Shown here in pieces: positions 15,887-46,084 of a stretch of 64,000 nucleotides of DNA; the first letter of the stretch is position 1, and the number at the start of each line of letters is the position of its first letter. Source of the stretch: Escherichia coli (GTDB taxonomy: Bacteria > Pseudomonadota > Gammaproteobacteria > Enterobacterales > Enterobacteriaceae); assembly GCF_030013205.1 (NCBI RefSeq), contig NZ_CP122648.1; one strand, written 5' to 3'. The notes beneath the pieces were generated by a model. The model was not told where the DNA came from and ran no database searches. It was given only the letters and a program-made list of their open reading frames with translations. The translations under genes were made by a program, and so were the position numbers.

Positions 15887-17320
15887 CTAATTGTTCTGGT
15901 AAATATCTTTATACAAACGGCTTTCAAAACGTACCAACGGAATACGGCGATTACGCTGATCCGCCGGTTCTACTGCATAGCCAGAAAGATATTGCACAAA
16001 CGCCATTCGTTGCCCGCTCGCTGTGGTAATGAATCCCGCCAGGTTATATACCCCCTGCAACGAACCGGTTTTCGCTGAGACTTTTCCATCCACGCCCGCC
16101 TGATGCAGACCTGCACGGTACTGCAAAGAGCCGTCATAGCCCGCCAGCGGCAGCATGGAGATAAAGTTAAGTTCATTGTCGTGTTGGGCAATGTATTGCA
16201 GCACCTGCATCATGGTGGCGGGGGCAATCAGGTTATGCCGCGAAAGCCCTGAACCATCGGCAATAATGGTGTTTCCAATATCGACACCGGCTTGCTGGCG
16301 CAGGATCTGACGCACGGCGTCCGACCCGGCCCGCCATGTTCCGGGCACATTGAAGCGCGCATGGCCTATCATGCGGAAAACCGTATCGGCGATCATGTTG
16401 TCTGACTTTTTCAGCATAATCTTAAGCAGATCGTGCAGCGGGGCCGACTGTTTACTGGCAACTACCGTTCCAGGTTCGTTAACCTGAGTCTGGCGCAGCA
16501 GTGTTCCGCTCCAGGTGATACCCGCCTGTTTTAACTCATCTTTCAGAATTGCCCCGGCATAGCTGGCTCCATCCTGCACGGCAAAAGCCAACGGGAGCGG
16601 CTCAGAACGTTGCGGCAGGCATCCCGTCAGCGTAAAGCGGTTCAGCTCGCCTGGTACGACATCCAGTTCGCAGTATTGCGCTTCGGCAGAACCACGGGGG
16701 AGGGTGCGTACCTGGCTGAACATCGTAACGGGGTAATAAGATGCCACGCGTATAAAAGCCATATCACCAGGTTTTGGGGCACTGTAGAGCGAGACGGAGA
16801 AACAGTTGCGGTCAACTATGGCGGCGGCAGGCGGAGCGCTAAAGCATTGTGTCATGTCATTCCATGGCCAGCCGGGGGCTTTATCGTGGCTGGCGAAAAT
16901 GGAGGTATCTATAAACACATTGCCATCGATTTGGTTGACGCCAGATTTTTTCAAAGTCGCGACCATATTGCGAATATCCTGACGTCTTAACGTCGGATCG
17001 GCACCAAATCGCGCCACTAAGTCACCCTTAAGTACGCCGTTTTCCACATTGCCTTTGGTTTCAAGCGTCGTGGTAAAACGAAAATCGGGGCCGAGTTGAA
17101 TCAACGCCGCCAGTGCAGTAATCACTTTCTGCGTACTGGCGGGCAGCGCCATCTGCTGACTGTGGTAATCAATAGCGGGGGCCGACGCGCCGACTTTTTG
17201 CACCATCAGGGCAAGGTTGGCACCAGCGGGGAGTTGAGTAATGTACTCATCAACATTTGCGGCCTGAACACTGAACGCTATACAGCTGGTCAATCCGATG
17301 ATAAATCTGGAAAATCGCAT
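15887..17320 (-). CDS. dacB: D-alanyl-D-alanine carboxypeptidase/endopeptidase PBP4
   Basis: 477 aa with signal peptide and STQK active-site motif. Confidence 0.95.
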   Translation of the reverse strand: MRFSRFIIGLTSCIAFSVQAANVDEYITQLPAGANLALMVQKVGASAPAIDYHSQQMALPASTQKVITALAALIQLGPDFRFTTTLETKGNVENGVLKGDLVARFGADPTLRRQDIRNMVATLKKSGVNQIDGNVFIDTSIFASHDKAPGWPWNDMTQCFSAPPAAAIVDRNCFSVSLYSAPKPGDMAFIRVASYYPVTMFSQVRTLPRGSAEAQYCELDVVPGELNRFTLTGCLPQRSEPLPLAFAVQDGASYAGAILKDELKQAGITWSGTLLRQTQVNEPGTVVASKQSAPLHDLLKIMLKKSDNMIADTVFRMIGHARFNVPGTWRAGSDAVRQILRQQAGVDIGNTIIADGSGLSRHNLIAPATMMQVLQYIAQHDNELNFISMLPLAGYDGSLQYRAGLHQAGVDGKVSAKTGSLQGVYNLAGFITTASGQRMAFVQYLSGYAVEPADQRNRRIPLVRFESRLYKDIYQNN

Positions 17321-17567
17321 AATCTCGCGCTAACAACCTGGAATCGAGCCGTCATACTACGGCGCAACGCCCTATAAAGTAAACGATGACCCTTCGGGAA
17401 CTTCAGGGTAAAATGACTATCAAAATGTGAATTGTAGCTGACCTGGGACTTGTACCCGGGTCGGTATTTTTTTGCTTCTGGTCCCGGTGAGGAGTTATGC
17501 CGGGCAGGCCGAACAGCCGGGGTGGGTGAAGACTTGCCCCATCAGGAATATTCAAGAGGTATAACAA

Positions 17568-28068: not shown

Positions 28069-28182
28069 CTTTAGTCCTTTTTCAAATATACTGTGAAGAC
28101 TTCGGCCTTCGTAGTGGGATTTGAAAAAATCCTTCTGGAAAGTGCTCCAGACCGCAGTTGCGGTTATAGGGTTCAGTTATAT

Positions 28183-28208
28183 AAAGCCCCGATTTATCGG
28201 GGTTTTTT
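28183..28208 (+). terminator. Hairpin terminator/attenuator between metY and rimP
   Basis: AAAGCCCCGATTTATCGGGGTTTTTT. Confidence 0.7.
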
Positions 28209-28267
28209 GTTATCTGACTACAGAATAACTGGGCTTTAGGCCCTTTTTTTATGTCTTGGGGGTGGGC

Positions 28268-32921: not shown

Positions 32922-32998
32922 GTAGGCCGGATAAGGCTTTTACGCCGCATCCGGCAGCCGTTGCCTGATGCGACGCTAGCGCGTCTTATCAGGCCTAC
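32922..32998. repeat. BIME: two inverted REP units between infB and rbfA
   Basis: GTAGGCCGGATAAGGC..GCATCCGGCA and GCCTGATGCGACGCTAGCGCGTCTTATCAGGCCTAC. Confidence 0.8.
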
Positions 32999-33066: not shown

Positions 33067-33468
33067 ATGGCGAAAGAATTTGGTCGCCCGCAGCGCGTAG
33101 CGCAGGAAATGCAAAAAGAGATCGCTCTCATCCTGCAGCGTGAAATTAAAGATCCTCGTCTGGGCATGATGACCACCGTTTCCGGTGTCGAAATGTCTCG
33201 CGACCTGGCGTATGCCAAAGTATATGTAACGTTCCTCAACGACAAAGATGAAGACGCGGTTAAAGCGGGCATCAAAGCGCTGCAGGAAGCTTCTGGTTTC
33301 ATCCGCAGCCTGCTGGGGAAAGCGATGCGCCTGCGTATCGTGCCGGAACTGACCTTCTTCTACGACAACTCGCTGGTTGAAGGGATGCGCATGTCAAACC
33401 TGGTGACCAGCGTGGTCAAACATGACGAAGAACGTCGTGTTAACCCGGACGACAGCAAGGAGGACTAA
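33067..33468 (+). CDS. rbfA: Ribosome-binding factor A
   Basis: ORF 33037..33468 trimmed to [10 protein letters not shown] (133 aa). Confidence 0.95.
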
Positions 33469-34464: not shown

Positions 34465-34830
<366 letters not shown>

Positions 34831-34846: not shown

Positions 34847-34875
34847 AAAAGGGGGCCTGAGTGGCCCCTTTTTTC
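34847..34875 (+). terminator. rpsO rho-independent terminator
   Basis: AAAAGGGGGCCTGAGTGGCCCCTTTTTT. Confidence 0.8.
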
Positions 34876-35076
34876 AAGCTGACGGCAGCAATTCACTGGA
34901 AACTAATGTATTGTTGCTATGAATGATCTTCCGTTGCAGAGGTTCGCGCGGCTAATGAGAGGCTTTACCCACATTGGGCTGGGTTAGGGTTGTCATTAGT
35001 CGCGAGGATGCGCAGAAGATCGGGTATTAACACCAGTGCCGTAAGGTACTGTCTAAGAAAGAGAAAGGATATTACA
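34876..35076 (+). promoter_or_regulatory. pnp leader region (promoter and autoregulatory RNase III-processed leader)
   Basis: About 200-nt untranslated region between the rpsO terminator and the pnp UUG start; role assigned from established knowledge of pnp autoregulation, hairpin not mapped here. Confidence 0.45.
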
Positions 35077-41680: not shown

Positions 41681-43058
<1,378 letters not shown>

Positions 43059-43069
43059 GTTAAAACACA

Positions 43070-44077
43070 CTACCCCAATAATTCTTCCTTCACATCCATC
43101 ACCAGCTCAAACGAATGCAGGCGCGCCTGGTGATCGAAAATCTGCCCGTTAACCATAATCTCATCGGCGTCGGTTTCGCGCAGGATCGACTGCAAGCCGT
43201 GACGCACTTTCGCTTTATCACCCACCAGCGACATACTCAGCGCCTGCTGCACGCCATACTGCTCGGACGGTGACCAGAACTGATCCATATTTTGAATCGG
43301 CGGCGGCAGTTGCCCGGTTTCGCCACGGCGCAGCTTCACAAAGGCTTGCTGCATTGAGGTAAAGAGAAATTCAGCGTCGCGGTTGCTGTCGGCGGCGATA
43401 ATATTGATGCACACCATCGCATACGGTTTTTCCAGCCGTGCCGACGGTTTGAAGTTGCTGCGATAAAGATGCAGCGCCTGGAACAACATATCCGGCGCGA
43501 AGTGTGAGGCAAACGCAAACGGCAGACCAAGCTGCGCCGCCAATTGCGCGCTGTAAAGGCTGGAGCCTAACAACCACACGGGGATTTTCTCGCCATAGCC
43601 TGGTACCGGGCGCACATGCGGATTGGGATCGCGGGCGTCAAACCAGTCCACCAGCTCCGCGACATCGCGGGGAAAATTATCAATATCGCCGCTCATATGA
43701 CGACGTAGAGCCATCATGGTTCGCTGGTCACTACCCGGAGCACGACCCAGCCCCAAATCGATTCGCCCCGGATAGAGCGTATTAAGCGTGCCGAACTGTT
43801 CGGCGATCACCAATGGTGAGTGATTAGGCAACATCACGCCGCCAGACCCCAGATGCAGCGTAGTGGTATTCGCCGCCAGATAGCCAATCAAAACTGATGT
43901 TGCAGCACTGGCAATGCCGGTCATATTGTGGTGTTCCGCCAGCCAGTAGCGATGATAGCCGCGCTTTTCAGCCAGACGGGCGAGGTCGAGAGAGTGGGAG
44001 AACGCTTCTCGCGCTGAAGAACCTTCGGGAATGGGGGCCAGATCGAGTAGCGAAAACGCAATGGTTTTATCAGTCAT
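43070..44077 (-). CDS. yhbW: Luciferase-like (LLM class) flavin-dependent monooxygenase
   Basis: 335 aa ORF recognised as YhbW. Confidence 0.85.
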
Positions 44078-44080
44078 AAC

Positions 44081-44150
44081 AGCTCACTTTGTTACCGATT
44101 AATCTTTAATACTGCATTAAAGAGTAGTTAAAGTTGTTAACAAAGTGAGC
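44081..44150. promoter_or_regulatory. 16-bp inverted repeat in the ubiV-yhbW intergenic region
   Basis: AGCTCACTTTGTTACC (44081..44096) and GTTAACAAAGTGAGCT (44135..44150) match 15/16 as reverse complements, 38-bp AT-rich spacer. Confidence 0.4.
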
Positions 44151-44157
44151 TATTTAC

Positions 44158-45036
44158 TTACGCTTGCAGCTCCAGCCCGGCCAGCCGACGCCAGTAGCCG
44201 TTACAATCGCTGTTTGCCGTCAACGGCAGTGGCGCAGCGCCATTTTCATTGGCGCGGAAGGCGTCGAGTATCGCGAAAGTGTCAGTACCCTGCGGTGACA
44301 GGCGGACCACATCAACCAGCCCCTGCATGGATGCCAGCTCGTTACCGAGGTTGTAAACGTAGCCGCTCATGGTCTGAATGCCGTTGAGTACAAACACTTG
44401 TTGGTTTTCCTGCGACAGAACGTTGCGCCCGTTCGGATACTTAATGCAGCAGGTTTCGCACTCATCTTTCGGGCGGTCTTCCGAACGCGCGGTAAAGCAG
44501 CGGGCGGAGTAGGCCAGCGGCAGATGACCGTAGCTCAAGACTTCCACTTCAAACTGGTTGCGAATGCCCAGCTCATCGCACTGATTAAGCAGATTCACCA
44601 GCCAGTCGCGGGATAGCTCCACCGGCATACACCAGCGCATCATGCCCTGTTTGAGCAATATTTTCAGTGTCACCGCGTTGTAGCAGTTCAGCGCGTGCCC
44701 GGCGACGAACGGCAGTTTGCGTTCAGCGCACATATTCACCACGCCGAGATCGCTGGCTTCAATCAGAAACTCACCGTTCTCAACATAGCGTTTCAGTTCG
44801 CCCAGTTCGGAGGATGCCTGCACCAGCGCCAGCGTGGAGAGCACAATCTGCTTACCACTTCCGGCGAGTGATTTTGCCATCTCCAGCCAGTCGCCAACTT
44901 TGGTTGCCCGGCGCTTGCTGCATACCGCTTCACCAAGATAAATCACGTCGGCGCTGCTGGCGGCGGCCTGCTGATAAAATTCTTCCAGCGTCTCTTTTGG
45001 CCAGTACCACAGCACTGGCCCTAAGGAATATTTCAT
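44158..45036 (-). CDS. ubiV: O2-independent ubiquinone biosynthesis protein (U32 peptidase family)
   Basis: ORF 44158..45054 trimmed to MKYSLGPVLWYW (292 aa). Confidence 0.85.
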   Translation of the reverse strand: MKYSLGPVLWYWPKETLEEFYQQAAASSADVIYLGEAVCSKRRATKVGDWLEMAKSLAGSGKQIVLSTLALVQASSELGELKRYVENGEFLIEASDLGVVNMCAERKLPFVAGHALNCYNAVTLKILLKQGMMRWCMPVELSRDWLVNLLNQCDELGIRNQFEVEVLSYGHLPLAYSARCFTARSEDRPKDECETCCIKYPNGRNVLSQENQQVFVLNGIQTMSGYVYNLGNELASMQGLVDVVRLSPQGTDTFAILDAFRANENGAAPLPLTANSDCNGYWRRLAGLELQA

Positions 45037-45044
45037 TGCTTTTC

Positions 45045-46040
45045 TCACTGCCATTTACGGTGATACGCGCCAAGGGTGGTCTGCGTGCCTTCGGACATCG
45101 ACCCGAGCGTCTCCATCCACGCGCTTTGCGGTATGAAGTTTTGCGGATCGGCCTTACAACGGTCGATAGCCTGACGCCAGACTTTCGCCACCTGGCTGAC
45201 ATACGCCGGGCTACGCTGGCGGCCTTCAATTTTCACCGAAGCAATATTCGCTGCCATTAACTCCGGCAGCAGTTCCAGGGTATTGAGACTGGTGGGTTCT
45301 TCCAGCGCGTGATAGCGCTCGCCGTCCACCAGATAACGCCCTTTACACAGCGTCGGATAACCTGCGTTTTCGCCATCCTGATAACGGTCGATCAGCACTT
45401 CGTTCAGGCGGGATTCCAGCCCCTGCGGCGTTTGTTGCCAGCGCACGAAACGGGCCGGAGAACACGCACCCACAGTGTTGGGCGACTCACCCGTCAGATA
45501 CGACGACAGATAGCAACGCCCTTCCGACATAATGCACAGGCTGCCGAAAGCAAACACTTCCAGCGGGACAGGTGTGACCCGAGCCAGTTGTTTCACCTGA
45601 TGAATCGACAACACGCGCGGCAGCACCACGCGTGCAACGTCAAAATGGCGATGATAAAAGTTAATCGCCTCTTCATTGGTCGCCGAAGCCTGCACCGATA
45701 CGTGACGTTCAATATGCGGGTAACGCTCGGCGGCGTACTCCAGCATGGCGAGGTCGGCGAGGATCAGCGCGTCGGCACCCAGCTGCGCCGCCATATCCAC
45801 GGCGCGCTGCCAACGGGCGTAACCGTCCGGATGCGCAAAAGTGTTAATCGCGATGTGAAGTTTGCGGCGATGTTGATGGACAAAACTCACCGCTTCCTGC
45901 AATTTTTTCTCGGTAAAGTTAAGGCCGGCGAAGTGACGGGCATTAGTATCATCTTTTAGCCCGATATAAACAGCATCTGCGCCGTTTTCGATGGCCGCCT
46001 TAAGCGCCGGGAGATTTCCGGCAGGGCAGAGCAGCTCCAT
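45045..46040 (-). CDS. ubiU: O2-independent ubiquinone biosynthesis protein (U32 peptidase family)
   Basis: ORF 45045..46067 trimmed to MELLCPAGNL (331 aa). Confidence 0.85.
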   Translation of the reverse strand: MELLCPAGNLPALKAAIENGADAVYIGLKDDTNARHFAGLNFTEKKLQEAVSFVHQHRRKLHIAINTFAHPDGYARWQRAVDMAAQLGADALILADLAMLEYAAERYPHIERHVSVQASATNEEAINFYHRHFDVARVVLPRVLSIHQVKQLARVTPVPLEVFAFGSLCIMSEGRCYLSSYLTGESPNTVGACSPARFVRWQQTPQGLESRLNEVLIDRYQDGENAGYPTLCKGRYLVDGERYHALEEPTSLNTLELLPELMAANIASVKIEGRQRSPAYVSQVAKVWRQAIDRCKADPQNFIPQSAWMETLGSMSEGTQTTLGAYHRKWQ

Positions 46041-46065
46041 AATTTTTCCTGAAGGTTGCGCTATC

Positions 46066-46084
46066 AAAGCGCAAAAATGTTAAC
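46066..46084. promoter_or_regulatory. Perfect 7-5-7 palindrome upstream of ubiU
   Basis: TTGCGCT-ATCAA-AGCGCAA, 26 bp upstream of the ubiU start in the ubiT/ubiU divergent region. Confidence 0.4.

Follow-up and report, generated by a model that had tools for sequence, protein, structure and literature searches.

Genes and features of the ubiV-yhbW junction

The 64-kb window (the whole stretch of E. coli DNA analysed here) carries the genes ubiU, ubiV and yhbW, all on its minus strand, and the ubiV stop codon is separated from the yhbW ATG by a gap of 80 bp. The original prediction, which concerned this gap, had named the genes on either side of it as ubiV and the LLM monooxygenase gene yhbW, and the NCBIfam matches agree with both identities. 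The same gap in E. coli K-12 is identical in sequence, with the yhbW ATG at K-12 positions 3303448–3303450. The features of the locus that are needed first are as follows, in window coordinates.

46067..45045, minus strand: ubiU (NCBIfam UbiU)
44158..45054, minus strand: ubiV (NCBIfam UbiV), the gene upstream of the gap, stop codon 44160..44158
43070..44077, minus strand: yhbW (NCBIfam PRK10508, luciferase-like monooxygenase), the gene downstream of the gap, ATG at 44075–44077
44136..44151, minus strand: 5' arm of the inverted repeat, AGCTCACTTTGTTAAC in the mRNA sense, directly after the ubiV stop codon
44081..44096, minus strand: 3' arm of the inverted repeat, GGTAACAAAGTGAGCT, which finishes 3 nt before the yhbW ATG
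44087..44083, minus strand: GTGAG, the only Shine-Dalgarno-like sequence present, inside the 3' arm
44078..44154, minus strand: whole hairpin including its A/U extension (AAAU...GUU), a 17-pair outer stem plus an inner stem-loop
44104..44122, minus strand: central palindrome CTTTAATGCAGTATTAAAG, the apical stem-loop of the hairpin, found by repeat search and fold

In the mRNA sense the junction reads UAA-GUAAAU-AGCUCACUUUGUUAAC-(39 nt that include CUUUAAUGCAGUAUUAAAG)-GGUAACAAAGUGAGCU-GUU-AUG. The two arms are complementary at 15 of 16 positions, with one mismatch, across a spacer of 39 nt, and a repeat search lengthens them to 44078–44094 and 44138–44154 (17 nt, 94% complementary). A 15/16 inverted repeat in the 80-bp gap is what had been predicted, and it is present; only its end (44150 for 44151) and its spacer (38 for 39 nt) were each off by one. 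No other inverted repeat with arms of 16 nt, one mismatch or none and a spacer of 80 or less occurs in the window. Repeats of this kind also arose, once or more, in 7 of 60 windows simulated with a first-order Markov model (about 0.12 per 64 kb), so chance is not excluded from one sequence alone; it is conservation across genomes that decides the point, and it argues that the repeat is not a chance product.

Several other features of the window were noted. Between mtr and yhbW, at about 41700–43060, an IS110-family element is inserted in REP-like sequence; its "RNA-guided transposase" gene (ORF 41932..42912, plus strand; NCBIfam NF033542, E = 2.8e-75) is preceded by about 200 nt of non-coding DNA, and since the mtr-yhbW interval in K-12 is only 117 bp the insertion measures about 1.28 kb. 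The segment upstream of the ORF (GTGCAGAGAAAATCGGCCAGTTTTCTCTGCCTGCAGTCCGCATGCCG...) resembles the IS621 bridge-RNA region; no Rfam family matched that segment. The curated RNAs of the window (17351–17472, 28150–28250, 32925–32995, 34503–34617 and 34847–35018) comprise the greA leader, the rimP leader, naRNA4, the S15 leader and SraG, and with two tRNAs they fit the E. coli 71-min region.

Conservation of the inverted repeat

Of 5426 complete genomes of E. coli, 5418 have the repeat in single copy at the ubiV-yhbW locus, and the full 77-nt hairpin is identical in 4459 of 5423. A test for dispersed repeats of the REP/BIME, ERIC or MITE kind found one locus per genome and not many copies, a second BLAST place of the element being the palindrome matching itself. 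Within E. coli the arms are practically invariant, and polymorphisms of the species gave no further covariation. In one of the 5423 genomes (L097, isolate 602, NZ_OW968111.1:561428-561539) the hairpin is now a perfect palindrome of about 38+38 nt, in which the exact complement of the 5' half replaces the 3' half and the candidate -10 hexamer discussed below reads CAGCAT; the change has the look of template switching that corrected a quasipalindrome.

Beyond E. coli, junctions were collected from species-representative genomes, from contigs encoding YhbW homologues, across which the ubiV-yhbW synteny is kept, and from 72 metagenome contigs chosen by an unrelated leader motif. Conservation across Enterobacteriaceae had been proposed as a check on the repeat, and both arms are indeed kept, and kept complementary, in 36 distinct arm variants, from genera that include Escherichia, Salmonella, Citrobacter, Klebsiella, Enterobacter and Cronobacter as well as Franconibacter, Atlantibacter, Pluralibacter, Buttiauxella and Mangrovibacter. 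The 5' arm is absent from Erwinia, Brenneria, Acerihabitans and Tenebrionibacter. In genera without the 5' arm a terminator scan called no ordinary terminator; by eye, two loci (L009 and L010) have hairpins with 9–10-nt loops followed by T-runs.

The two arms are not conserved alike. The 5' arm is nearly invariant across the 36 variants, and its summed entropy is 2.5 bits as against 7.3 bits for the 3' arm, so that the 5' arm must bear some additional, sequence-specific constraint. The distance between the arms is 48–49 nt in the short form and 57, 72, 97, 103 or 112–122 nt in others, rising to about 150 nt in 184-nt leaders, and these separations have no helical phasing. Such a pattern sits badly with the original prediction of a paired operator or DNA-looping site for a dimeric regulator. 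Two near-identical inverted 16-mers do bracket the putative promoter region and overlap the start of yhbW, but the half-sites are unequally conserved, their separation is neither fixed nor phased between 48 and about 150 nt, and the single-copy element has no other copies in E. coli.

As an alternative, the arms may be constrained independently, the 5' arm as a promoter or activator site and the 3' arm by translation initiation, with their complementarity a historical quasi-palindrome whose pairing has no selected function. In favour of this, the 5' arm is invariant even where the 3' arm varies, and (C)AAGTGAG / AAAGTGAGC is retained before the ATG in Erwinia, Brenneria and Tenebrionibacter despite the missing 5' arm. 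The pairing evidence given next bears on both of these alternatives.

Pairing of the arms in RNA

The sense RNA of the junction folds with a minimum free energy of -28.8 kcal/mol (z = -4.9, a stability that no shuffle out of 200 reached) into the 17-pair outer stem and inner stem-loop listed above, in which the 3' arm covers the yhbW Shine-Dalgarno region. The outer helix is the consensus helix in both the short-form and the long-form alignments, and over the 36 variants 91% of its cells are paired, against 33–44% in slid registers. Complementarity of 13–17 nt is found in all variants and pairing holds at arm distances from 48 to more than 120 nt; the long forms lengthen it by ACAGC/GCUGU.

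Neither in the 36 sequences, where 75 of 500 shuffles match its score, nor in a set of 17 does the outer helix covary significantly, and covariation was dropped as a proof of this helix. Most of its pairs never vary, and double changes occur in two pairs only, which is the third point in favour of independently constrained arms. The one-sided changes are more informative: in the sense orientation they comprise 28 G.U cells and a single A.C cell (5 and 1 distinct pair types, respectively), an excess that is expected if the arms pair in the sense RNA. The central hairpin has modest covariation, in the form of A-U to C-G changes in several lineages; its score was attained by 10 of 500 shuffles. 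Known RNA families offered no match. Rfam 15 at a permissive threshold gave at the site only a microRNA hairpin model, as a sub-threshold chance match (27 bits, where 56 are needed), and no family was found at the site in the whole-window scan or in seven long-form loci.

Pairing is also predicted to matter for translation. The computed energy needed to open the yhbW ribosome binding site (RBS; -17 to +3) is 14–24 kcal/mol in RNA that holds both arms and 4.5–10 kcal/mol in RNA that begins at the predicted yhbW start described below; both ranges apply to 16 of the 18 taxa, whether their form is short or long.

These observations weigh unequally on the two alternatives. That the complementarity of the arms is a mere relic is quite unlikely, given that 13–17 nt of it persist in all variants and more in the long forms and that nearly every departure from it is a G.U when read in the sense orientation; moreover, whatever its origin, the pairing has a physical consequence, because an in vivo 3' end maps at the stem base (see below). 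A paired operator is the least probable of the readings that we considered, and a very remote one, since the wobble pattern points to RNA. The reading we favour is that the repeat is an RNA hairpin which closes the ubiUV message and hides the yhbW RBS, not a paired operator.

The 3' end of the ubiUV message

RegulonDB lists ubiUV and yhbW as separate operons. In the SMRT-Cappable-seq data of Yan et al. (2018; PMC6131387) for K-12 in rich medium, a transcript that fully covers b3158|b3159 starts upstream of ubiU, at 3301438, and ends at 3303449, a "novel TTS" (Supplementary Data 1, Rich_TTS). Of 162 reads from this start, 16 end at 3303449 and 53 more end no further than 50 bp downstream; 28 pass 3303449, with a median read-through of 76 nt, and in Data 3 of the same paper some reads run from ubiU|ubiV into b3160 (yhbW). 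With the yhbW ATG at 3303448–3303450, the ubiUV 3' end falls on the U of the yhbW AUG. Its equivalent in the window is

44076, minus strand: mapped ubiUV 3' end (K-12 NC_000913.3:3303449)

and lies 5 nt beyond the base of the stem, where the arms have their last A-U pair. These read ends put the hairpin at the point where the ubiUV message ends and some RNA reads through, and the hairpin gives a structure to a "novel TTS" that has so far been only a table entry. The original prediction had set termination aside, which the position of this end does not bear out.

As an intrinsic terminator the hairpin is unorthodox. Its stem has 17 pairs but its loop, where a classical terminator has a G+C-rich stem closed by 3–8 nt, is 39 nt long and contains a second stem, and the tract after the stem, UGUUAUGA, has 4 U in 8 where the terminator scan requires 5; the scan called no site in the ubiV-yhbW gap. 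The ends at 3303449 do fall within that tract, as those of an intrinsic terminator should, and the 53 further ends within 50 bp fit Rho-dependent termination with trimming as well. The 3' end at 3303449 could come from processing instead of termination.

One form of processing would be that RNase III cuts the compound hairpin, which has roughly 30 stacked pairs, and thereby parts ubiUV from yhbW RNA and sets their stabilities. Long A/U-rich helices with internal loops resemble RNase III substrates such as the rpsO-pnp leader, and the hairpin, a long and mostly A/U-rich helix with internal loops, has 3' ends near its stem. We nevertheless consider RNase III cleavage improbable, as the mapped end lies outside the helix, 5 nt past its base, and the perfect outer helix is just 14–17 bp long.

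A candidate yhbW promoter within the hairpin

Unlike ubiUV, which is activated by FNR, yhbW belongs in E. coli to the SoxS/MarA/Rob regulon. In K. pneumoniae, where the junction has the same architecture as in E. coli, RamA binds a yhbW promoter fragment in EMSA and activates it in in-vitro transcription, and in a Salmonella ramA mutant yhbW is down 3-fold. Vanillin raises YhbW protein 77-fold and its mRNA 13-fold in E. coli, and this induction is soxS-independent. The suggestion in the original prediction that yhbW is controlled independently of ubiUV was therefore right in spirit, the regulators being RamA, SoxS, MarA and Rob for the one and FNR for the other. Activators of the MarA family bind as monomers to asymmetric sites (PMC5684230) and so need no palindrome, a further point against a paired operator, given that they are the known regulators of yhbW.

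The sequence between the arms suggests where such an activator could work. The features concerned are as follows.

44150..44136, minus strand: marbox-like 15-mer GCTCACTTTGTTAAC within the 5' arm, the best sense-strand match upstream of yhbW by position weight matrix (PWM)
44109..44114, minus strand: CAGTAT (CAnTAT), candidate -10 hexamer of the putative yhbW promoter, recognised by conservation
44099..44103, minus strand: predicted yhbW start zone (K-12 about 3303422–3303426), 7–8 nt past the candidate -10

Of 18 taxa, 16 have 21 nt between the 15-mer and CAnTAT and two have 20 nt, a fixed box-to--10 distance of the kind seen at class II promoters. In the CAnTAT block the C, A, T and A are invariant over 33 variants and the last T is present in at least 90%, while the middle base occurs as all four bases; the 14 nt between the 5' arm and a conserved TTAATG are variable. 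All insertions (REP, ERIC or a leader of about 70 nt) lie either on the upstream side of the 5' arm or on the downstream side of the central block, and none separates the two. A marbox PWM built from 33 MarA ChIP-seq sites scores the 5' arm at 8.54 bits, which ranks 48th of 128,000 window positions and is the top sense-strand match upstream of yhbW; for validated marboxes the median score is 13.2 bits and the lowest 3.7 bits, and about 0.05 matches of this strength are expected by chance per 80-bp gap. The candidate box departs from the marbox at its third position (GCTC in place of GCAC), and CAGTAT agrees with TATAAT at only 3 of 6 positions. A consensus promoter scan called nothing in the ubiV-yhbW gap, and neither the transcript-end data of Adams (2021) nor the supplements of two Grainger-lab ChIP papers contain a yhbW entry. 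From the conserved geometry and the regulon membership of yhbW we infer that the gene probably has its own stress-inducible promoter inside the hairpin, whose transcript, starting some 7–8 nt past CAGTAT at about 44101–44103, would have a leader of about 25 nt that lacks the 5' arm.

The original prediction proposed ChIP-seq overlap as a check on the arms, and for MarA it was not seen. A MarA site known from ChIP-seq and in-vitro binding, gcacaatctgcttac, is reported within yhbV (= ubiV); it lies at 44841–44855 on the plus strand, opposite to the genes and about 760 bp upstream of yhbW, which rules it out as the 5' arm. The two highest scores of the marbox matrix in the window are at 16422–16436 (minus strand) and 33102–33116 (plus strand), with 15.3 and 14.4 bits, both above the site inside ubiV. 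The central palindrome was compared by eye with FNR, CRP, ArcA, OxyR, LexA and marbox sites and rejected as any of these for wrong spacing or poor match and for its asymmetric conservation.

A different placing of the yhbW start, upstream of the 5' arm (in ubiV or at its end), would put the hairpin on all yhbW RNA; it would then act as a translational cis-repressor opened by a factor, an sRNA or temperature, besides serving as the 3'-end structure of ubiUV. Occlusion of the yhbW RBS is also consistent with this arrangement, covariation of the central hairpin requires an RNA that holds that hairpin's 5' half, the sole nearby MarA ChIP-seq site is upstream, inside ubiV, and no promoter was called in the gap. 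However, RNA structure fails to explain the fixed 21-nt spacing from the 5' arm to CAnTAT with its variable filler, given that on its 3' side the same loop can be as short as 10 nt or longer than 80 nt; in E. albertii, O26-type E. coli and Salmonella, ERIC and REP inserts of 100–270 bp separate ubiV from the 5' arm and leave the unit undisturbed; and the MarA site in ubiV is on the opposite strand and some 760 bp off. We regard an upstream start as unlikely, although it is the foremost of the alternatives to a promoter embedded in the hairpin.

Insertions at the junction

The inserts upstream of the 5' arm abut it exactly. ERIC-like inserts, with GTAAGCTCCTGGGGATTCAC, sit at the outer edge of the arm in E. 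albertii and O26-type E. coli (L005:2150-2430; L099), and a REP-like insert, GCCTGATAAGCGTAGCGCCATCAGGC, sits there in Salmonella (L082:2319-2425). On the other side, an insert of about 70 nt separates the CAnTAT block from the 3' arm in Klebsiella, several Enterobacter, Cronobacter, Franconibacter, Atlantibacter and Entomohabitans (L094:2395-2500; L001, L006, L084, L085, L087, L090 and L093; L101-L172). It is laid out as CAGCUUUUCUGGC, a variable G+C hairpin and GCCAGGCUGGAAGAAGACCUUCAAUCUGAUGAC, with an invariant 25-nt core; the variable hairpin covaries, and the insert has no Rfam match. In the 72 metagenome contigs each such insert with enough flanking sequence lies in a yhbW leader. The insert may be an undescribed cis-regulatory leader. 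Two of the metagenome leaders, of 184 nt (L157 and L163), have an extra G+C-rich insertion of about 38 nt that splits GCUGU from AAAGUGAGC, and in both the outer half of the 3' arm is still beside the ATG.

A model for the junction

We propose that the junction has two uses: the hairpin ends the ubiUV RNA and occludes the yhbW RBS on read-through, while RNA from the embedded promoter is translatable. We consider the case for this to be about evenly poised. Published mapping underlies the part that concerns the hairpin and the 3' end, conserved geometry and regulon membership the part that concerns the promoter. The anaerobic ubiUV RNA, activated by FNR, would carry both arms and fold into the long hairpin. 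That hairpin would mark or protect the ubiUV 3' end, either as a weak intrinsic terminator (the stem, then UGUUAU) or as the point at which 3' exonucleases stop after Rho-dependent termination slightly downstream. In RNA that reads through, it would bury the yhbW Shine-Dalgarno region and abut the AUG, and because the RBS would thus be hidden, an oxygen-dependent monooxygenase would not be translated from an anaerobic message.

As DNA, the 5' arm and loop would form an activator-dependent yhbW promoter, in which the marbox-like box overlaps the -35 region and the CAnTAT -10 follows 21 nt on, the class II geometry of the activators MarA, SoxS, Rob and RamA. Transcripts from this promoter would start in the loop and, being without the 5' arm, would have an open RBS. 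The fullest form of the proposal is that the activator box is itself the anti-RBS strand of the ubiUV terminal hairpin and that the choice of promoter sets translatability, FNR-driven read-through RNA being silent and stress RNA from the loop making YhbW, with the leader of about 70 nt added in Klebsiella, Enterobacter and Cronobacter perhaps a further input; this we put forward more tentatively, as somewhat less probable than the two uses of the junction by themselves.

Comparison with known systems

In IS10 and IS50, transcripts that come from outside hold both complementary segments, fold and are not translated, while transcripts from the elements' own promoters are translatable. This fold-back inhibition of read-through transcripts was reportedly described by Davis, Simons and Kleckner in 1985 for IS10/Tn10 and by Schulz and Reznikoff in 1991 for IS50. 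As in those elements, a segment upstream of the putative own start of yhbW is complementary to the yhbW RBS. Unlike them, the ubiUV-yhbW site is a chromosomal junction of two housekeeping units with no transposase, its anti-RBS strand appears to be an activator box as well, its hairpin also marks the 3' end of the upstream operon, and the own-promoter start is predicted and not mapped.

The hairpin is similarly a partial relative of several other elements. It shares with intrinsic terminators and with the protective 3' stem-loops left after Rho (PMC6061677) a stable hairpin at an operon end, RNA 3' ends lying a few nt beyond the stem and some read-through, but it differs in its 39-nt loop with a stem of its own, in a U-tract that is only UGUUAU and in a downstream arm that is the RBS of the next gene. 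The candidate promoter resembles the class II promoter of micF in that its marbox-like 15-mer is oriented alike (21 nt from the -10 at yhbW, 20 nt at micF), whereas its box has GCTC and not GCAC and the MarA ChIP-seq site reported is another one, in ubiV. Like REP/BIME and ERIC sequences the element is an intergenic imperfect palindrome, and such repeats can stabilise upstream mRNA; unlike them it is single-copy and locus-specific, and in Salmonella, E. albertii and some E. coli it has true REP or ERIC copies as neighbours.

If the model is correct, two units on the same strand with opposite oxygen logic, ubiUV for anaerobic ubiquinone synthesis and yhbW for an oxygen-dependent flavin monooxygenase of the antibiotic and oxidative-stress regulon, would be kept apart within 80 bp and with no canonical terminator. 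The junction would be a chromosomal case of the transposon trick of blocking the translation of read-through RNA. It also provides a concrete candidate promoter and marbox for yhbW, which is among the most strongly induced of the functionally unknown members of the mar/sox/rob/ram regulon.
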